From contig JBHHXN010000170.1 in assembly GCA_046757025.1 (NCBI GenBank), forward strand, positions 1 through 11,115: DNA of 11,115 nucleotides, written 5' to 3'. Shown here in pieces: positions 194 through 11,115 of this stretch (its first letter is position 1; every line of letters begins with the position of its first letter). The notes under the pieces were generated by a model. That model was given only the letters and a program-made list of their open reading frames with translations, ran no database searches and had not been told where the DNA came from. Made by a program: the position numbers and the translations under genes. The DNA is from a bacterium (lineage in GTDB: Bacteria; Zhuqueibacterota; Zhuqueibacteria; Oceanimicrobiales; Oceanimicrobiaceae).

Positions 194-889
194 TTATTCC
201 AGCCAGTCCGGGATTGATTCTGCAACCGGCCAGTGCGATTCAAGCCACGATCGATATTCGTTGTCAGAATGGACGTACAAAAATCCCCGCATGGTGTAAT
301 GCCCGTACCCGCACAGCTCCGCACAAGCGATCTCATATTTGCCGGTTTCCGTGGCTTCGAACCAGGCTTCGATTTCCCGACCGGGCACCAGATCCTGCTT
401 GAGCCGCAACACCGGCACGAAAAAACTGTGGATCACGTCTTGAGAAGTCAGGACGACTTTCACCACCTGATTTACCGGCACATGCATATCGTTTTCTTGC
501 GTGAGATCATCTTCGGTGCCGAAAGCGCCGTCGGGCCCCGGGTAGGTGATGATCCAGTTGAATTGCTTACCCTTGATTTGCACGGTCACATCGCTGACGG
601 GCACATCCCCTTTTATTTTGTCGTACGCTTTTGCACCTTCAAAGTCAATCCAGAGATCCAGCACCAGAATGATGGCCGCCGGCACCAGAATCCAGGCGAC
701 TTGCGCCCAGCTTTCTCCTCTGACAAACGAGGCTTTTTTGCCTTCGCGTTTGCGATAGCGAAACAAAAAATAGATGATGGCGCCTTCGCCAAGCAGAAAG
801 CCGATTCCGACTATATAAAATATTAAATAAAATACCGAGTCAATGTCGGCTCCATAAGTCGATATATTTTTCGGAAACCAATCAAACAT
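194..889 (-). CDS. coxB: Cytochrome c oxidase subunit II (CuA-binding), 231 aa, two N-terminal TM helices, no fused cytochrome c domain
   Basis: Complete CuA ligand set DVIHSFFVP...CAELCGYGHYTM (H, C-x-E-x-C-x3-H-x2-M); GKQFNW electron-entry strand; two hydrophobic helices; AGGAGG RBS (899-904, minus strand) 9 nt before the ATG. Confidence 0.93.
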   Translation of the reverse strand: MFDWFPKNISTYGADIDSVFYLIFYIVGIGFLLGEGAIIYFLFRYRKREGKKASFVRGESWAQVAWILVPAAIILVLDLWIDFEGAKAYDKIKGDVPVSDVTVQIKGKQFNWIITYPGPDGAFGTEDDLTQENDMHVPVNQVVKVVLTSQDVIHSFFVPVLRLKQDLVPGREIEAWFEATETGKYEIACAELCGYGHYTMRGFLYVHSDNEYRSWLESHWPVAESIPDWLE

Positions 890-1268: not shown

Positions 1269-1616
1269 CTAAGAGCGAATCATGGTCAGCAGCATTTTGA
1301 AATTGTCCGTGGCCGTGAGGGCATGCGGCCGGTTTGCCGGTAAAATAATCATCTCACCTTCCTGCAGGTGAAACGATTGGCCTGCGATGATGACTTCTGC
1401 CGCTCCCTCGAGCAGATGCACCAGCGCATCAAATGGGGCAGTGTGTTCACTCAATCCCTGACCCTTGGCGAAGGCAAATAGTGTCACCGTCCCCGTGGGC
1501 TTTTTGATGATGGTTCGGCTCACCACTGAGCCATCCTGATAATTTATCAGCTCGTTTAGGGGAGCGACTTTGCTCGAAAATTCGTTCACCGTATTTTCCG
1601 TTGATTTATTTTGCAT
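1269..1616 (-). CDS. Cupin domain protein (HP0902-like small cupin), 115 aa
   Basis: Cupin motifs LFAFAKGQGLSEHTAPFDALVHLLEG and GEMIILPANRPHAL; AGGA RBS 6 nt before the ATG. Confidence 0.88.
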   Translation of the reverse strand: MQNKSTENTVNEFSSKVAPLNELINYQDGSVVSRTIIKKPTGTVTLFAFAKGQGLSEHTAPFDALVHLLEGAAEVIIAGQSFHLQEGEMIILPANRPHALTATDNFKMLLTMIRS

Positions 1617-2483: not shown

Positions 2484-2900
2484 ATGCCGGTACTTTTTAG
2501 TCGAGCTTGTGAATACGCCATACGCGGACTGGCAGAGATGGCCAGCCAACCAGAAATAACTTCCTGGACCATTCAAGAATTAGCGAAACAAACGGATACG
2601 CCGGCGCCCTTTCTGGCGAAGACGTTTCAGACACTGGTGAAATCCGGCATTCTCAACTCCGCCAAAGGCCGCCACGGCGGGTTTTCCTTTGCACGCCCTG
2701 TAGATAAAATCTATATCATGGAAATTGTAAATATTTTAGATGGCCCGACTCTCGCCAATGATTGCGCTCTGGGATTTCCTGAGTGCAGCGGAATCAATCC
2801 CTGTCCTTTTCATGCCCAGTGGGGTGAAATCCGCGAAACCATTATCCACGCTTTAAGCAGTCAATCTCTCATCGAATTTGCTCAACAGCAGCGTGGATAA
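2484..2900 (+). CDS. Rrf2 family transcriptional regulator (Fe-S binding type), 138 aa
   Basis: FSRACEYAIR N-terminus, PAPFLAKTFQTL recognition helix, SAKGRHGGF wing, C94-x6-C101-x5-C107-x2-H110; AAGGAG RBS at 2468-2473. Confidence 0.93.
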   Translation: MPVLFSRACEYAIRGLAEMASQPEITSWTIQELAKQTDTPAPFLAKTFQTLVKSGILNSAKGRHGGFSFARPVDKIYIMEIVNILDGPTLANDCALGFPECSGINPCPFHAQWGEIRETIIHALSSQSLIEFAQQQRG

Positions 2901-3217: not shown

Positions 3218-3673
3218 ATGCCTATCATTTTCACAAAAGGATGTGAATACGCCTTGCAATCGGTTTTATATCTCGCATCAATGCCTGATTGCACGCCTGT
3301 TTTTCAAAGGGATATTTCCACCGCCTTGATGATTCCGCCGCATTTTTTAGGCAAAGTTTTGCAAGCGCTGGCACGTAACGGATTGGTAACTTCCCAAAAA
3401 GGTAAAACCGGAGGTTTTGTTCTCAGCAAAGCGGCGAAAGATATTTCACCGTACGATATCATCGCAGCCATTGATGGTCCGGCGTTTCTTAATAAATGTG
3501 TAGTGGGCTTTCCCGGCTGCGATGACGCCACGCCCTGTCCGATGCACGATCAGTGGAAAAAGATTAAACAAGAAATCGTTCACATGTTAAAAAATAAAAA
3601 CCTAGAACAACTCAGTAAGGAAATGGACATCAAATTGGAGTCCATCAAAAAACTCAATCCGCGTTCTGATTGA
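3218..3673 (+). CDS. Rrf2 family transcriptional regulator (Fe-S binding type), 151 aa
   Basis: FTKGCEYAL, PPHFLGKVLQAL, SQKGKTGGF, C-x6-C-x5-C-x2-H (CVVGFPGCDDATPCPMH); aligns without gaps to the upstream paralogue; no obvious Shine-Dalgarno sequence. Confidence 0.93.
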   Translation: MPIIFTKGCEYALQSVLYLASMPDCTPVFQRDISTALMIPPHFLGKVLQALARNGLVTSQKGKTGGFVLSKAAKDISPYDIIAAIDGPAFLNKCVVGFPGCDDATPCPMHDQWKKIKQEIVHMLKNKNLEQLSKEMDIKLESIKKLNPRSD

Positions 3674-3902: not shown

Positions 3903-5786
3903 ATGTTTATGAATTCAAATTTGTTGCAAGTTGAAATTCCGGACGTGGAGTACTGGAAAAGTCAGATCAAATGTCAGAGTGGCTGCCCCGTGCATACCGA
4001 CGCACGCGGCTATGTGCGCGCCATTGCGGAGGGCGATTATGAAAAAGCCTATCTCATTGCGCGCGCGCCCAATCCGCTGGCGTCCATGTGCGGTAGAATT
4101 TGCGGGGCACCGTGCGAAGCCGCCTGCAGAAGAGCCGATCTCGATGAGGCGGTTTCCATACGTGCATTGAAACGTTTTGTCACGACAAAATTTGGTCCGG
4201 AGTCGGGAAAGCTCGCCAAAAGTCCGCTGGAAACACTGCAAAACTTGTTCAAAAAAAGCCTGCGAGAATGCGAAGGCATGGAAGGGCTGATGAATTTTCT
4301 AACTCATTTTAAAAATCCCACCTTTCCTGCAGATGCGCCCACGGTGGGCATCATCGGTTCGGGGCCGGCCGGACTGGCAGCGGCACACGACCTCTGTCTC
4401 ATGGCCATTAAACCTGTCATTTACGAAATGGAACCCGTTGCGGCAGGCATGCTCTATCTGGGAGTGCCGGAATACCGTCTGCCCCGCGACCTGATCAAAG
4501 CCGAGGTGGAAGTCATCAAGGCCATGGGCACGGAAATTATCTGCAATGTGCAGATCGGCAATGACGTGACGCTGCAAGAACTACGGCAAAAACACGACGC
4601 GGTGCTGATCGCGGTGGGGGCGAAAAAGTCCCGCAAGATTCCCATCCCCAACATCGACGCCAAAGGGGTGTTAGGGGGGGTCGATTTTCTGCGCGATGTG
4701 GCTTTAAACCAGTCGGTGGAGCTGGGAAAGAAACTCGTGGTCATCGGCGGCGGCAACGTGGCGTACGACGTGGCCAGAACCCTGGTGCGGCAGACCGAAT
4801 ACGATGTTTCGCGCACAGCCCTGCGGCAGAAAGGCGTAAAGGAAGTGCACCTGGTTTGCCTGGAATCGCTGGAGGAAATGCCGGCCGACACCACCGAGAT
4901 CGTGGAAGGCGAGGAAGAAGGCGTCATCCGGCATAATTCTCTGGGTCCGAAAGAAATTCTGGTGGACGACCAGGGCCGGGCCTGCGGCGTACGATTTGTC
5001 AGATGCCTGTCGGTTTTCGATGAAAACAAACGTTTCGCGCCCAAATTCGACGAAAACGAAACCGTGGATTTACCGGCAGATAATGTTATTCTCTCCATCG
5101 GTCAGGCCACTGATTTGTCGTTCATCGACAGCGAGGATGTCGCCCTGACCGACCGCGGTCAATTAAAACTGGACCCGACTCTTAACCAAACCGAGGCTAC
5201 GGGGGTGTTTGCGGCCGGCGATGTGGCTACCGGGCCGGGCCTCATGATTCAAGCCATTGCCAGCGGTAAACAGGCGGCGAGAAAAATTTTCACTTATCTG
5301 AAAAACCAAAATCTTTCTGCGAAAACCAGCAGCCAGCACCACGATATTCCGGCTTACTCCAAAGAAAGCGGCTACGAATCCCTGGCGCGCGAAGGCGTGC
5401 CGGCCATGTCGCCCGAAGAGCGCAAGCGGGCCATGAACGTGACCGTGGAGAAGGGATTTTCAGAGGCCCAGGCCGTTCGCCAGGGAAGCCGCTGCTTTAA
5501 CTGCGCGGTCAACACCATTTTTGACAGCGAAAAATGTATTTTGTGCGGCGGATGTGCCGACGTCTGTCCGGAAGCCTGTCTCAAACTGGTGCCCCTGGAA
5601 GTACTGCAGGGCAATGCGGATTTTGAACAACTGCTTAAAAATCGATATAATGACCAACCGCTGACAGCGGGCGGCGCCATCATCAAAGATGAAACGATTT
5701 GCATTCGATGCGGATTGTGTGCGGAACGCTGTCCGGTCGGAGCCATTACCATGGAAGCTTTTAATTTTAAGGAGAGTTTCGTATGA
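3903..5786 (+). CDS. FAD-dependent NAD(P)H oxidoreductase of the GltD/NfnB/DsrL-like superfamily with a C-terminal 2x[4Fe-4S] ferredoxin domain, 627 aa (start may be the ATG at 3909)
   Basis: CQSGCP...CGRICGAPCEAAC N-terminal Fe-S domain, IIGSGPAG (FAD), VIGGGNVA (nucleotide), VFAAGD, RCFNC, CILCGGCADVCP and CIRCGLCAERCP; no signal peptide; AGGA (3897-3900) is better spaced to the ATG at 3909. Confidence 0.9.
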   Translation: MFMNSNLLQVEIPDVEYWKSQIKCQSGCPVHTDARGYVRAIAEGDYEKAYLIARAPNPLASMCGRICGAPCEAACRRADLDEAVSIRALKRFVTTKFGPESGKLAKSPLETLQNLFKKSLRECEGMEGLMNFLTHFKNPTFPADAPTVGIIGSGPAGLAAAHDLCLMAIKPVIYEMEPVAAGMLYLGVPEYRLPRDLIKAEVEVIKAMGTEIICNVQIGNDVTLQELRQKHDAVLIAVGAKKSRKIPIPNIDAKGVLGGVDFLRDVALNQSVELGKKLVVIGGGNVAYDVARTLVRQTEYDVSRTALRQKGVKEVHLVCLESLEEMPADTTEIVEGEEEGVIRHNSLGPKEILVDDQGRACGVRFVRCLSVFDENKRFAPKFDENETVDLPADNVILSIGQATDLSFIDSEDVALTDRGQLKLDPTLNQTEATGVFAAGDVATGPGLMIQAIASGKQAARKIFTYLKNQNLSAKTSSQHHDIPAYSKESGYESLAREGVPAMSPEERKRAMNVTVEKGFSEAQAVRQGSRCFNCAVNTIFDSEKCILCGGCADVCPEACLKLVPLEVLQGNADFEQLLKNRYNDQPLTAGGAIIKDETICIRCGLCAERCPVGAITMEAFNFKESFV

Positions 5787-6253
5787 AAAATCATCGTGAT
5801 GAAACCAATGAAATCAACCGTCGAGATTTTTTAGGGAAATTAGCGGTTGGCTCCTTAATCGGGGCCGGCTCCATGGCGTTCATCGGGGTGATCCAGTTGC
5901 CCCTGCCCAAAGTGCTCAACGAACCGCCTAGTGTATTCAAAATCGGATTTCCAGCCGAATTCCAGCCGAATACCTTTAAAACCATTGCTGATAAAAACGT
6001 TTTTGTGTTGCGGGATACCGAAGGGTTCCGAGCTTTGTCTGCGATTTGCACGCATCTCGGTTGCATCGTGTCGCAGGTTGAATGGGGTTTTGTCTGTCCC
6101 TGCCACGGCTCGAAATTCGATCAGCAAGGTCAGGTCACCGGCGGCCCGGCCCCGAAGGGTCTGGAATGGTTAAAAGTGAGCTTGAGTCCGGACGGTCAGT
6201 TAACCGTGGATCTCGACAAAAAAGTAGCCGCCGATGTGGTATTCATCGTTTAG
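5783..6253 (+). CDS. qcrA: Rieske [2Fe-2S] subunit of a Rieske/cytochrome b complex, 156 aa
   Basis: Tat motif NRRDFLGK plus TM helix; CTHLGC and CPCHGSKF boxes; GPAPKGL; ATGA overlap with the upstream stop; AAGGAG RBS at 5769-5774. Confidence 0.93.
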   Translation: MKNHRDETNEINRRDFLGKLAVGSLIGAGSMAFIGVIQLPLPKVLNEPPSVFKIGFPAEFQPNTFKTIADKNVFVLRDTEGFRALSAICTHLGCIVSQVEWGFVCPCHGSKFDQQGQVTGGPAPKGLEWLKVSLSPDGQLTVDLDKKVAADVVFIV

Positions 6254-6370: not shown

Positions 6371-7933
6371 ATGGAAGAAAATGGATTGAAAACATTTGCA
6401 GACAACGTGAAGGAAGTGAAACGCACCTTAAAAGAGTCCGTGCGCCGATACGAATGGCCGCCCAAATCCGACCGAGAAAAATCCCAGGCCATATTTCAGA
6501 ATTTCTTTCTGCACATTCAATCGGCGCGTATGCACAAATTCAGCCTGAAACCGCTCTACACCCTCGGGCTGGGTTTGATGACCTTTTTCCTTTTTCTTAT
6601 CCTGTGTGTCACCGGCATTTTGTTGATGGTGTATTACAATCCCACCACCAGTCTTGCTTATGACAACGTTCGCGACATTAGTTTTGTGGTGGCTGCTGGC
6701 AAGTATATGCGCAACATTCACCGCTGGGCGGCGCACGGTATGGTGCTCATGGTGATTCTGCACATGGTGCGGGTATTTTACACCGGCTCCTACAAAAGAA
6801 ACCGCAAATTTAACTGGCTCATCGGCATGGCGTTGCTGGCGATCACGCTCATGCTCAGTTACACGGGTTATCTGCTGCCCTGGGATCAGCTTGCATACTG
6901 GGCGGTGACCATCGGCGCCAACATCGCGGCCTCGCCGAGGGAGCTCACCGACGCACTCGGTATCACACAGTATATCGATTTCGGCGGTTTTCAAAAACAA
7001 TTGCTCATCGGCGGAAACACCGTGGGGCAGGAAGCCCTGACCCGCTTTTATCTTCTGCACGTAATGATCCTGCCCATTGCCGCCATCACCCTCATCGGAG
7101 TGCATTTCTGGCGGATTAGAAAGGACGGCGGATTGAGCCGGCCCGACAACGCGGATGAAATCATCTTGAAGGAAGAAGGAGTGGAAATCGACAAAGATTT
7201 CTACCAGAAAGGCGAATTCAACCTGAACAAAAATAAAACTTACGGTTTGATGGCGCTGGTGAAAGACCGGTCACCGCAGTTAAATGCCGGTCCGGACAAC
7301 ACAATCATGACCTGGCCGGTCGGAATATGGGCTGAAGTCGCGGTTTTCATGTTGACCCTGGCGGTGATGACGGTTCTGGCGTATTTTTTCGATGCGCCCC
7401 TCAAAGAGATCGCCAATCCCGCCATTCCGGAAAATCCAGCCAAAGCGCCCTGGTATTTTTTGGGTTTGCAAGAGCTGGTTTCCTATTCCGCTTTTATGGG
7501 CGGCATCGGCATCCCCACCATCGTCATCGTGGGTCTCATGCTCATTCCGTATTTAGACAAAGAAGACCGGCATTTTGGCGTGTGGTTTTCCGGAACGGAA
7601 GGCAAGCAGGTTGCCATAAATTCGCTTATTTTTTCAACGGTCTTTTTGGTAGCCTTGTTGGCGTTCACGGTGAAGTTTGGCTGGCTGAGAAACTGGTTTC
7701 CTGCCATTCCACAGATCGTCATCGTGCTCATCAATCCCGGATCGTTCATCGTACTCATGTTTGCCTGGTGGTCGCTGCACACGCTGAAATTCACCGGTTC
7801 TACCCGGCTGGCGGCCATTGCGCTCTTCACCTGTTTTTTGATTGGATTTATTATTTTAACCATCATGGGCACCTATTTCAGAGGTCCCAACTGGGATTTT
7901 TACTGGTCTCCTTCACAATGGCCGGTACACTGA
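6371..7933 (+). CDS. qcrB: Cytochrome b subunit (cytochrome b6-like N-terminal half fused to a subunit IV-like C-terminal half), 520 aa
   Basis: RNIHRWAAHGMVLMVILH and LLHVMILPIAAITLIGVH heme-b His pairs, TGYLLPWDQLAYWA, TRFYLLH, NPAKAPWYFLGLQE (PEWY-equivalent), terminal FRGPNW; GGAG RBS at 6359-6362. Confidence 0.93.
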   Translation: MEENGLKTFADNVKEVKRTLKESVRRYEWPPKSDREKSQAIFQNFFLHIQSARMHKFSLKPLYTLGLGLMTFFLFLILCVTGILLMVYYNPTTSLAYDNVRDISFVVAAGKYMRNIHRWAAHGMVLMVILHMVRVFYTGSYKRNRKFNWLIGMALLAITLMLSYTGYLLPWDQLAYWAVTIGANIAASPRELTDALGITQYIDFGGFQKQLLIGGNTVGQEALTRFYLLHVMILPIAAITLIGVHFWRIRKDGGLSRPDNADEIILKEEGVEIDKDFYQKGEFNLNKNKTYGLMALVKDRSPQLNAGPDNTIMTWPVGIWAEVAVFMLTLAVMTVLAYFFDAPLKEIANPAIPENPAKAPWYFLGLQELVSYSAFMGGIGIPTIVIVGLMLIPYLDKEDRHFGVWFSGTEGKQVAINSLIFSTVFLVALLAFTVKFGWLRNWFPAIPQIVIVLINPGSFIVLMFAWWSLHTLKFTGSTRLAAIALFTCFLIGFIILTIMGTYFRGPNWDFYWSPSQWPVH

Positions 7934-7990: not shown

Positions 7991-10045
7991 ATGGAGAACA
8001 AAATGAATCTTGAAAAGCATTACGATCGATTCTACAAAATCATCACCATTGTTTCCAGCCTGGTTTGTATGATCTTTTTCGGATTCGCAGCCATCGAGGA
8101 AAACTTTTTACGTGAATGGAAAAACTACCAGGCGGACTTTAAAGATATTTTGATTGCCAGTGCTGAAAACGACCAGCAAAGACAAGCGGCCGAAGAATTT
8201 CCAATTGAAATACGGCAGGTGCTTTTGCCCGATTTCAAACGCGTGGATAGATGCATCAGCTGCCACAACGGCATAGAGAACCCCAACATGGCTGATGAGA
8301 ATATTCCACATGCCGCACATTCGGGTGATTACGTCCAGAACCATCCCGTGGAAAAATTCGGCTGCAGCATCTGCCACGGCGGCCAGGATCGGGCGCTGGG
8401 CACCAAACACGTGTTTGCGATGGAAGAAGACGTGCACTGGCAGTATCCGGTGTTGCCGCTGCAATACGTGCAGTCGTCCTGTGGAAAATGTCATCTGGCG
8501 GTTTTCGACGACACGCAAAGCCTGACCGGTGCCGAAGTCTTGATGCAGGGTAGAAAGCTGTTTTACCGCGAAGGATGCCTGGGATGCCACAATGTGCGCG
8601 GCACCGGCGGTAGCGTGGGGCTGGAGCTCACCGACCAGGGACGCAAAACCAAACATGAATACAGTTTTAAATTCGTGGAAGGCGAGCACACTGTGCAAAA
8701 CTGGCTACGGGAACATTTCATTTCCCCGCAAAAAGTGTCGCAGGTTTCAGAAATGCCGGCCATCGACCTAAACCCGGAAGATATGGACGCGCTCATCACC
8801 TTTACCATGAGTTTGTACTCGCCGGAATATCCCACGGATTACTATACCTTCGAGGCCATTGCTGAATTTAAAGGAAAGCGGAAAGAATTCAATGGCACCG
8901 AAGCCTACGGCCTCTTCTGTGCGGTGTGTCACGGTGAAAACGGCCAGGGCAAAGATTACCGCGTGTTTCAAGCCAGCGTGCCGGCGTTAAACAATCCGGA
9001 TTTTCTGGCTGTAGCTTCGGAGGATATGATCCAATTTTCCATCCGCAAAGGACGCAGCGGCCGTAACATGTCGCCCTGGTCGGAGGCTTTTGGCGGACTC
9101 AAGGAGGAAGAGATCCATGGTCTGGTAGAATTGATTCGAAGCTGGAAAACGCCGCCGCCAACCTTTGCGGAAGTGAAAACAACCCGCGGCGACGCGGTTT
9201 TTGGAGAACAGCTTTACCGTTCGCGTTGCGGCACCTGCCACGGCCTAGACGGCGAGGGAGGGATTGGTCCTTCTCTGAACAATCAGGATTTTCTGGCCAT
9301 TGCCTCCGATGAATTTCTTTACAAAACTATCGTCCACGGCCGAAGAAATACGGCCATGCCTTCCTGGTCGCGGCTTTCGAAAGAAGAAATCGCTAGTATC
9401 ATCGCGGTGCTGCGCAGATGGCAAAAAACGCCGCAACGACGTCTTTCATCTCAAAAAATCACGGGCAACATCGAAAACGGCCGGCAATTGTTTACTTCCA
9501 TGTGCGTCGGTTGTCACGGCAGATATGGCCAGGGCTCGGTGGGGCCGGCGATCTTGAACAAAGATTTTTTAATCGCCGCCACGGATCAATTTATTCTTCA
9601 TTCCATTTCGCGCGGCAGGGGGCAGAGCGCCATGCGCTCCTGGGCGAAAGAATTTCAGGGGATGGAACAGCTCAGCAAACAGGAAATGAATGACATCGTC
9701 GCTTTTATGCGCGGCCAGGAAGACGTCCAGCCGGAGGGCATTTACACCAACATTTCGCCGGGAACGGTTTCCAAGGGCAAAGAGCTTTACGAAGGCATGT
9801 GCAGCGGCTGCCACGGAAAAAACGGCGAGGGCAAACACGGACCGGCTTTGAACAATCAGGAATTTCTCAACGCGGCCACCAATGGCTTTATCCAGGCCAC
9901 CATTGCGTTGGGCCGGTCGGGAACCGCAATGCGTTCCTGGGCCAAAGGCGCACAAGGTTATGAAGAGCTCAGCGCCGACGAGATTAACGACATCACCACT
10001 TATATTCGTTCGTGGCAGAAACAGGTCATGAAAATCAAAAATTAA
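7991..10045 (+). CDS. Membrane-anchored octaheme cytochrome c, 684 aa (start may be the ATG at 8003)
   Basis: N-terminal TM helix; 8 CxxCH motifs (CISCH, CSICH, CGKCH, CLGCH, CAVCH, CGTCH, CVGCH, CSGCH); GGAG at 7993-7996 suits the ATG at 8003. Confidence 0.92.
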   Translation: MENKMNLEKHYDRFYKIITIVSSLVCMIFFGFAAIEENFLREWKNYQADFKDILIASAENDQQRQAAEEFPIEIRQVLLPDFKRVDRCISCHNGIENPNMADENIPHAAHSGDYVQNHPVEKFGCSICHGGQDRALGTKHVFAMEEDVHWQYPVLPLQYVQSSCGKCHLAVFDDTQSLTGAEVLMQGRKLFYREGCLGCHNVRGTGGSVGLELTDQGRKTKHEYSFKFVEGEHTVQNWLREHFISPQKVSQVSEMPAIDLNPEDMDALITFTMSLYSPEYPTDYYTFEAIAEFKGKRKEFNGTEAYGLFCAVCHGENGQGKDYRVFQASVPALNNPDFLAVASEDMIQFSIRKGRSGRNMSPWSEAFGGLKEEEIHGLVELIRSWKTPPPTFAEVKTTRGDAVFGEQLYRSRCGTCHGLDGEGGIGPSLNNQDFLAIASDEFLYKTIVHGRRNTAMPSWSRLSKEEIASIIAVLRRWQKTPQRRLSSQKITGNIENGRQLFTSMCVGCHGRYGQGSVGPAILNKDFLIAATDQFILHSISRGRGQSAMRSWAKEFQGMEQLSKQEMNDIVAFMRGQEDVQPEGIYTNISPGTVSKGKELYEGMCSGCHGKNGEGKHGPALNNQEFLNAATNGFIQATIALGRSGTAMRSWAKGAQGYEELSADEINDITTYIRSWQKQVMKIKN

Positions 10046-10057
10046 GGTACGGGGAGC

Positions 10058-10102
10058 GGCTGCTGGCAATTGGCTGTTAGCTGTTGGCTATTAGTAGTTG
10101 GC
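10058..10102 (+). repeat. Heptamer tandem array (consensus RGCTRTT), 6 units
   Basis: GGCTGCT GGCAATT GGCTGTT AGCTGTT GGCTATT AGTAGTT GGC. Confidence 0.8.
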
Positions 10103-10123
10103 CTTTGTTCTGAAATGAGTCGT

Positions 10124-10205
10124 ATGACGTTTGAGATTTAAAAATTTGCATATTTGGTATAAAAGCCAAAAAACATCTATGGGCAAACTAAAATCCAATA
10201 GCTAA
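10124..10205 (+). pseudogene. Remnant of a four-helix-bundle (23S rRNA intervening-sequence protein-like) gene
   Basis: Removing one base after ATG ACG TTT gives MTFRFKNLHIWYKSQ..., resembling the family's N-terminal F-x-x-L-x-(V/I)-W-x-K-(A/S) motif; the frame ends KLKSNS-stop inside the right heptamer array. Confidence 0.45.
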
Positions 10206-10224
10206 AAGCTAACAGCCAATAGCT
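10190..10224 (-). repeat. Heptamer tandem array, 5 units, inverted relative to 10058-10102
   Basis: Minus strand AGCTATT GGCTGTT AGCTTTT AGCTATT GGATTTT; 10207-10220 is the exact reverse complement of 10069-10082 (14/14). Confidence 0.8.
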
Positions 10225-10291
10225 GAATTTTCACAAATCAAGTAATCAACATTTTAGCATTATCAATGATAAATGGATGAAGGAGCGCAAA

Positions 10292-11115
10292 ATGAATCCT
10301 GATAAAAACAAAAAGCACTGGACGTTAACCCGACGCAAATTTCTGCAGGCGTCGGCAACCATGTCGGCCGTCACGGCGGCCAACGTCATCGGGTGTAAAG
10401 GCCGGGAAACGGAGATCAAAATGGTGAAAACCGCCCCCCCGGCTCAGACCAACAATTTCCTGTCGGCGTGTCCTTACTGCGGCGTGGGCTGCGGCACCAT
10501 GATTCAGGTGGAAAACGGCAAGATCGTCGGCATGGTGCCGGATAAAAATCACCCCACCAATCGCGGCATGCAATGCATAAAAGGTCTCACCGCCAACGAG
10601 CCCATCTACATCGATCGACTCACCAAAGTTTTGGTGCGTAAAGACGTTTGGGCGGAATGGCAGAAGCCCGGCCACGGCGATCTCGAATTTACCTCAAAAA
10701 CCAAAGACGCCTTCGACGACGATCTCTGGGAAGAAGTGTCCTATGACGAAGCCAGCGAAATGACCGCCCACAAAATCGCCCATCTGGTCCAGAAATACGG
10801 CGGAAATTGCATCGGGCTTTACGGTTCCGGTCAGTTGACTTTTGAGGGCCAGTACCTGGAAAACAAATTCATGAAAGCGGTGCTGGGTTCCAACACCATG
10901 GAAGCCAATGCCCGCATGTGCATGACCAGCGCGGTGACCGCTTATTTTAAAACCCTGGGCTCGGACGCGCCGCCCACCTGTTACGAAGACACCGAAATGT
11001 GCGACTTCATTTCCTTCTGGGGTCACAACCCGCGCGAAGCTCATCCCATCATTTTCTGGCGGGTAGCGGATTACAAGAAAGCCGCCAACATTCCCACCCT
11101 GGTGGTGGATCCGCG
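10292..11115 (+). CDS. napA: Tat-exported molybdopterin nitrate reductase catalytic subunit (NapA/NasA family), 5' partial, 274 codons, runs off the window
   Basis: Hand translation: MNPDKNKKHWTLTRRKFLQASATMSAVTAANVIGC...CPYCGVGC...QCIKG...GSGQLT...NARMCMTSAV...GSDAPPTCYED...WGHNPREAHP...VVDP; open to the window end; AAGGAG RBS at 10280-10285. The napA symbol is tentative. Confidence 0.85.
   Translation, partial: MNPDKNKKHWTLTRRKFLQASATMSAVTAANVIGCKGRETEIKMVKTAPPAQTNNFLSACPYCGVGCGTMIQVENGKIVGMVPDKNHPTNRGMQCIKGLTANEPIYIDRLTKVLVRKDVWAEWQKPGHGDLEFTSKTKDAFDDDLWEEVSYDEASEMTAHKIAHLVQKYGGNCIGLYGSGQLTFEGQYLENKFMKAVLGSNTMEANARMCMTSAVTAYFKTLGSDAPPTCYEDTEMCDFISFWGHNPREAHPIIFWRVADYKKAANIPTLVVDP

Follow-up and report, generated by a model that had tools for sequence, protein, structure and literature searches.

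The window analysed here (the whole stretch of 11,115 nt) is the entire contig C170 of a 5.96 Mb assembly (94.8% complete), and it carries a respiratory operon that breaks off in the gene of a molybdenum enzyme. The operon, all on the forward strand, encodes: an Rrf2-family regulator (3218..3673), a similar gene preceding the module in two related loci (L003 and L004); a GltD-like NAD(P)-binding flavoprotein with 4Fe-4S domains (3903..5786); a Tat-bearing Rieske protein (5783..6253); a b6-type cytochrome b with a fused subunit IV-like part (6371..7933); a cytochrome c with eight CxxCH motifs (7991..10045); and the 5' part, 274 codons, of a Mo-bisMGD catalytic subunit (10292..11115), cut by the contig end. 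The four genes from flavoprotein to cytochrome c were assigned by domain searches, complemented by the Tat pattern for the Rieske protein and by a motif count for the cytochrome c. Upstream of the operon lie a second Rrf2-family regulator (2484..2900, forward strand), a cupin (1269..1616, reverse strand) and a cytochrome c oxidase subunit II (194..889, reverse strand). The cytochrome c and enzyme genes are separated by 246 nt (10046-10291), the corresponding distance being 23-137 nt in L001, L002, L005 and L006; within this gap are a terminator-like hairpin (10086-10103) and an inverted-repeat element to which seven other contigs have short matches; one sequencing run lacks 7 nt at 10080, and the element is likely a small dispersed repeat.

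The ATG at 10292 was preferred over the in-frame ATG at 10277 as the start of the enzyme gene because a Shine-Dalgarno-like AAGGAG (10280..10285, forward strand) sits 6 nt upstream of it. From either start the open frame runs beyond the contig end, and we would guess that this is why the gene is missing from the list of open reading frames. The translated fragment has Fe4S4 and molybdopterin domains in Pfam. The 3' part of the gene was found on contig C355 (positions 1-1581), corresponding to residues 380-906 of the closest full-length homologue at 87% identity; about 104 codons between C170 and C355 are unassembled, C355 shares a 55-nt overlap with contig C178, and no other contig overlapped the window end over the 21-55 nt tried. 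Contigs from four runs of one study (two of them possibly the source) span the stretch and continue past the window end; for the signal region they list no variant. No RNA data set was listed as carrying the stretch, which speaks neither for nor against its expression. From both gene ends and the full-length relatives we infer that the gene is intact in the source genome. C178 carries, in the gene order of L001, a napG-like and a napH-like gene, two more ferredoxin genes, a gene for a His-His, YtkA-like protein and one for a membrane Fe-S protein; the respiratory role proposed by the first-pass annotation is, as far as context goes, in keeping with this setting.

Signal peptide and catalytic site

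The predicted enzyme begins with a twin-arginine motif, TRRKFLQ (residues 13-19, 10328..10348, forward strand), present across the family, followed by the lipobox VIGC (residues 32-35, 10385..10396, forward strand), in which Cys35 (10394-10396) is the predicted lipidation site. By pattern this is a Tat lipoprotein signal: a Tat motif, an h-region (mean hydropathy 1.1) and then a conserved lipobox Cys. By chance, a strict lipobox turned up in 12 of the 3284 internal 22-residue segments taken from the genome's open reading frames, and in 3% of shuffles of the protein's own signal region. The window fragment used as a query matched 1371 longer proteins, and the best 120 of these, mostly of 880-913 aa and 62-94% identical, were inspected: the signal region of 10 contains a lipobox-like Cys, 108 have no Cys there and 2 lack the N-terminus. 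Loss of Cys35 among close homologues had been named in advance as evidence against the anchor; it is kept in all 10 relatives of at least 77% identity with an intact N-terminus within these 120, seven with the strict lipobox and three with Thr at -3. The 108 Cys-less leaders are all twin-arginine, four of them on visual inspection of a variant motif; export, the other half of the proposal, is predicted for the window protein and across the family. A lipobox was also found in three of four deeper family members and in 16 of 44 loci from species genomes (26 without, 2 cut).

On this sequence evidence the lipid anchor is probably real. The description of a membrane-tethered lineage holds for the close relatives and fails for the 108 matches without the Cys: the predicted anchor marks one subclade; it does not define the family, nor is it out of the ordinary in this organism for an enzyme of the Nap type. 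The canonical NapA of the source genome, encoded on contig C12, has itself a Tat leader with a lipobox (and the motif NARMC), so that the anchor is the least surprising part of the protein; the lipobox pattern fits 3 of the 22 Tat-pattern proteins of the genome.

The catalytic motifs were located as first described: CPYCGVGC (residues 60-67, 10469-10492), GSGQLT (residues 178-183), NARMCMTSAV (residues 206-215) and GSDAPPTCYED (residues 223-233). CPYCGVGC belongs to the [4Fe-4S] site CxxCxxxC, with the fourth Cys and a conserved Lys in CIKG (10469..10585, forward strand; Pfam, motif and alignment), and the stretch 10907..10990 (forward strand) encodes the Mo-ligand Cys210 (at 10919), the Met following it and a funnel Asp equivalent to D155 of Desulfovibrio desulfuricans NapA. 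NARMCMTSAV had been called intermediate between the NapA and NasA types; it is where it was said to be, and it is not peculiar, since the genome's canonical NapA has NARMCMASA. The insertion of about 25 residues was borne out, the spacing between CxKG and SGQ being 82 residues in the window protein, 58 in the genome's NapA, 65 in Escherichia coli NapA and 54-60 in three NasA-clade proteins, a surplus of 17-28 residues. This family-typical insert (residues 118-144, 10643..10723, forward strand) is well conserved in the main clade and short or absent in P0123, the deepest member examined.

All 51 aligned members share the ligand Cys with Met after it, the Lys and the equivalents of Q346, D155 and R354, and the residues encoded in the window and on C355 agree with a site of the nitrate-reductase type, which has Met after the ligand Cys where formate dehydrogenases have His. 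The family departs from NapA in the substrate funnel: the position of D355 is hydrophobic (Phe, Leu or Met) in all 51 members and Glu or Asp in all 21 NapA and NasA rows, the equivalent of E156 is lost, and 49 of the 51 members have an extra Glu directly before the funnel Arg. M308 of NapA, a position which we take to be of functional importance, is Ile in 49 of the 51. The accessible text of a 2026 review (PMC13223375) gives R354, D155, E156 and D355 as the charged channel residues of NapA. The AlphaFold model of P0002, a full-length homologue (pLDDT 85.1, pTM 0.87), had D. desulfuricans NapA as its best solved match (E 4e-52, TM 0.90 on the target, 27% identity), and the same enzyme was the best PDB match of the family profile; domains, Cys ligand and predicted fold place the family in the Nap/Nas/Fdh branch of the MopB (DMSO reductase) superfamily.

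Distribution and two operon architectures

The family was found at 44 loci in 44 species genomes of several phyla. The closest loci come from metagenome-assembled genomes labelled Calditrichaceae (88-89%), and further carriers belong to Spirochaetia, Myxococcota, Acidobacteriota and the Alpha-, Beta- and Gammaproteobacteria, including the cultured Shewanella gelidimarina, S. benthica and S. abyssi. Distribution is patchy, with 4 carriers among 151 genomes of the source phylum and 5 among 148 Shewanella genomes; in one gammaproteobacterial order used for testing (75 genomes), the family occurs in 36, NapA in 26 and NarG in 5. Deeper members came from searching representatives clustered at 50% identity; one of them belongs to Microaerobacter geothermalis, an organism that respires nitrate and also has Nar genes (PMC9119079), which makes it uninformative on the substrate. 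Names given to the family in databases are inconsistent (NapA, assimilatory nitrate reductase, 'selenocysteine-containing dehydrogenase').

The presence of the lipobox Cys goes with the upstream genes. Flavoprotein, Rieske and cytochrome b genes precede the enzyme in all 13 lipobox loci with at least 5.9 kb of upstream sequence and in none of the 23 Cys-less loci with at least 4.1 kb; conversely, among loci with 9 kb downstream, NapC was present in 0 of 8 lipobox loci and 19 of 22 Cys-less ones. Counts of multihaem and dihaem cytochromes from the same survey were set aside because repeated matches had inflated them. The 13 lipobox loci in the tree form one subclade (support 89), so the pairing of the anchor with the Rieske/cytochrome b module may have been a single event. 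The operon of the Cys-less subclade has a stand-alone dihaem cytochrome, which in Shewanella precedes the enzyme, and mostly NapC. Downstream genes are common to both architectures: all 30 loci with at least 9 kb downstream have a napH-like gene together with a napG-like gene, and 29 of them have the His-His gene. No napB-type gene was seen at the family loci, and napD had no match in the 44 loci, a weak test made with one NapD query, NapD being short and divergent. The stand-alone dihaem cytochrome from Shewanella has its best match in the source genome in the window's 8-haem cytochrome, to whose C-terminal half it is homologous (36%, E 3e-30); we infer that the dihaem unit stands in for NapB, free in one subclade and fused to the Rieske/cytochrome b complex in the other.

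The His-His protein (C178:7270-7839; L001:10933-11496) is conserved, of 190-200 aa, with His-His right after the predicted signal peptide and a C-terminal membrane anchor. It has no Pfam or NCBIfam match, its nearest Atlas cluster being 'YtkA-like' (0.96), and it is possibly a metal chaperone specific to this operon. Related modules occur elsewhere in the source genome: a third flavoprotein/Rieske/cytochrome b/8-haem module on C103 (8705-18370), with no molybdoenzyme seen, has in front of it a membrane Fe-S protein paralogue and two genes of cupredoxin/cytochrome c appearance, and further cytochrome b paralogues are present on C38, C292 and C365. On C12 (24104-52886) there is a canonical napD-napA-napG-napH-napF run, with NapA over its cut-off. 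Its flanking genes comprise two Rieske/cytochrome b pairs, two 8-haem cytochromes, an alternative-complex-III-like set and a GltD-like flavoprotein.

Two published systems resemble parts of this arrangement. As described in the accessible part of PMC5317091, the Nap cluster of Caldithrix abyssi has no NapB, contains napM and the octahaem eHao, and combines napGH with a Rieske/cytochrome b pair proposed as quinol oxidase; compared by gene content on that description, it is nearer the C12 cluster of the source genome than the window locus. The Rieske/cytochrome b complexes of Kuenenia stuttgartiensis (Kuste4569-4574 and Kustd1480-1485), which include an NAD(P) oxidoreductase and are proposed in the consulted portion of PMC12954380 to generate NAD(P)H through bifurcation, share with the window module, in a comparison of domain content from that portion, the Rieske protein, b6-like cytochrome b, multihaem cytochrome c and FAD/Fe-S NAD(P) oxidoreductase, whereas the window cluster ends in a molybdoenzyme and NapGH-like genes.

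Placement, probable function and alternatives

The placement of the family was analysed with FastTree on 156 rows and with IQ-TREE (LG+G4, no mixture model) on 44 of the 156; proteins below 650 aa were left out, the filter on open reading frames dropped 19 of 26 loci of the source phylum, and groups were labelled from E. coli and Rhizobium NapA, E. coli FdhF, two nirBD-linked NasA and motifs, with no labelled NarB or Bacillus subtilis NasC. The family is a single clade (100/100) in both trees, and NapA (100/99) and NasA (100/100) are separate clades, the branching order among the three groups being unresolved; in the IQ-TREE tree the family lies inside the nitrate-reductase radiation (100/100), apart from the formate dehydrogenases. 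AU tests rejected a clade with five canonical NapA (p-AU 0.0044) and nesting within NasA (p-AU 0.0138), and did not reject a sister position to NasA (p-AU 0.30). The first-pass annotation had named phylogeny with NapA, NasA and FdhF references as the check on its claim of a distinct exported lineage, and the claim stands because the family falls within neither canonical NapA nor NasA. No description of the clade was found in a literature search that took in few subscription journals, nor in PMC9119079, nor in the accessible parts of PMC3475470, PMC12780646 and two studies by Wells (2020 and 2023), whose sequence lists may hold members labelled NapA or NasC; it is, apparently, an undescribed and widespread lineage beside NapA and NasA.

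We consider it probable that this separate Tat-bearing molybdoenzyme lineage is an anaerobic, quinol-fed periplasmic respiratory nitrate reductase, here predicted to be lipid-anchored. The folded enzyme would be exported by Tat and acylated at Cys35; quinol would be oxidised by the NapH/NapG-like module, joined in the lipobox subclade by the Rieske/cytochrome b complex; the 8-haem cytochrome, its C-terminal haems replacing the missing NapB, would relay the electrons to the 4Fe-4S cluster and the Mo site, where nitrate would be reduced to nitrite. The lipid anchor would keep the enzyme beside the membrane-bound 8-haem cytochrome, and the Cys-less subclade would use the stand-alone dihaem cytochrome and usually NapC instead. 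Unlike in typical Nap, the route through the Rieske/cytochrome b complex could conserve energy. The nearest characterised system is NapA, above all the NapB-less type of D. desulfuricans (PDB 2JIO, 2NAP), with which the family shares the Tat signal, the 4Fe-4S site, the Cys-Met Mo site, the R354, D155 and Q346 equivalents, the predicted fold and NapG/NapH-like neighbours; it differs from NapA in being about 27-31% identical, in its own clade and about 150 residues longer, in the replacement of D355, E156 and M308, in its cytochrome partner and in two extra conserved genes.

Genomic context offers some support for nitrate as the substrate. Of 20 dihaem-type operons, 11 have FNR-like boxes upstream (0.71 expected), and no such box was found in the two promoter regions of the window tested. 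Among 16 loci whose neighbours were scanned, most have unrelated neighbours, and nitrogen-oxide respiration genes adjoin the operon in four. In L088 (2751-19643, one strand) a gene with a PilJ/NarX-type sensor domain is followed by the operon described here and then by a complete canonical napFDAGHBC-like run, the clearest physical link to nitrate respiration seen; in L011 the operon comes directly after nirS...nirN, and in L014 nnrS adjoins. In L089 a second Rieske/octahaem/NapA cluster lies about 10 kb downstream of the operon. NapA over the cut-off is present in 16 of the 44 carriers and in the source genome, three Shewanella carriers having two NapA genes apiece, and NarG gave two matches among the 44 carriers (one over the cut-off), being equally scarce in non-carriers of the control order. 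In the test order, where all counts rest on incomplete metagenome-assembled genomes of related, not independent, taxa, 20 of 36 carriers have neither NapA nor NarG detected. There the family showed no exclusion with NapA (13 of 36 carriers vs 13 of 39 non-carriers) or with NarG, nor did it track cd1 nitrite reductase genes (16 of 36 vs 23 of 39; 6 of 20 vs 12 of 24 among genomes without NapA and NarG); cd1 nitrite reductase does track NapA in the same order (20 of 26 genomes with NapA vs 19 of 49 without).

These patterns also leave a smaller but appreciable likelihood that export and wiring are as proposed and that the substrate is another oxyanion or an N- or S-oxide (for example chlorate, bromate, iodate or selenate), nitrate being at most a side activity. 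The funnel changes, family-wide and absent from the NapA and NasA rows, point this way, as do the retention of the enzyme beside one or two NapA genes, the lack of association with NapA absence or nir genes, the patchy distribution (many source records being marine) and the conserved pair of His-His and membrane Fe-S proteins, which NCBIfam and Pfam do not assign to Nap. Against it stand the nitrate-reductase type of the core Mo site, the linkage to nap, nir and nnrS genes in the four loci mentioned, and the far lower scores of P0002 with profiles for arsenite oxidase and for selenate, DMSO and tetrathionate enzymes.

The assimilatory origin first suggested, in which a NasA/NarB-type enzyme gained a Tat lipoprotein signal and was recruited to respiration, was not upheld and appears improbable. 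The family does share CPYCGVGC, GQPNAMG and the lack of an acid at the E156 position with NasA/NarB/NasC, and the sister position to NasA is compatible with such a history. CPYCGVGC is, however, present in formate dehydrogenase rows too, so that the 'assimilatory' look is most simply ancestral and not specific to NasA, and NasA is a clade without the family. Furthermore, the family differs from NasA/NarB/NasC in its Tat signal, present already in the deepest members, its respiratory operon, its NARxC (NSRLC in 11 of 11 NasA rows), the FNR-like boxes of its dihaem subclade and the absence of nirB, which had no match in the 44 loci and none over the cut-off in the source genome. Identity is 31% to E. 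coli NapA and 30% to Ensifer NasA. According to the part of Wells 2020 that could be consulted, NapA is monophyletic and derived from NasC/NasA.

Even less probable is an oxidase, which would take electrons from a periplasmic donor (such as nitrite or formate) and deliver them through the cytochrome and the Rieske/cytochrome b complex to NAD(P)+. The operon does contain an NAD(P)-binding flavoprotein, and the formate dehydrogenase model TIGR01591 scores P0002 slightly above the NapA models (321 vs 312 bits); this ranking is uninformative because the same model outscores the nitrate models on NasA-clade proteins as well. The family has neither the His after the ligand nor a score over the cut-off that mark FdhF/FdnG, and its larger subclade lacks the flavoprotein and has quinol dehydrogenases of the NapC/NapGH type. 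A divergent but otherwise ordinary NapA is hardly tenable: NapA is the best NCBIfam match of the fragment and the best PDB match, and NapA and NasA were inseparable in one tree of metagenome-assembled genomes in the available portion of Wells 2023, but P0002 scores 312 and 287 bits with the two NapA models (cut-offs 904 and 930; NasA/NasC models 275 and 228), the clade with canonical NapA was rejected and a true NapA is encoded elsewhere in the source genome. The missed cut-off is in itself not decisive, since basal NapA (five rows, 557-765 bits) and NasA-clade proteins miss theirs too, though scoring much higher.

A bolder extension of the nitrate reductase reading, which we put forward tentatively, is that the family might be a third, overlooked class of soluble-type nitrate/oxyanion reductase, outnumbering NapA in at least one order, and that its lipid-anchored subclade might serve as terminal module in a membrane supercomplex whose Rieske/cytochrome b part bifurcates quinol electrons to the molybdoenzyme and to a flavoprotein making NAD(P)H, as proposed for anammox bacteria. 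Marker surveys rely on profile cut-offs to count napA and narG, and this family falls below them; if its members reduce nitrate, nitrate respiration is undercounted in groups such as the gammaproteobacterial test order, and if they reduce another compound, they are markers of an unknown respiration. The cultured Shewanella carriers make the question of the substrate directly testable.

Two further sets of sequences were noticed in the trees. Four Tat proteins of 930-960 aa (P0176, P0212, P0232 and P0244), of unusual composition and with no recognisable Mo-ligand Cys motif, attach to the family by a long branch in the FastTree tree and were excluded from the IQ-TREE tree. Four other Tat-bearing nitrate-reductase-like proteins (P0128, P0133, P0154 and P0162; the P0128 cluster from Nitrospinota) fall outside NapA, NasA and this family, which suggests more unnamed exported lineages.
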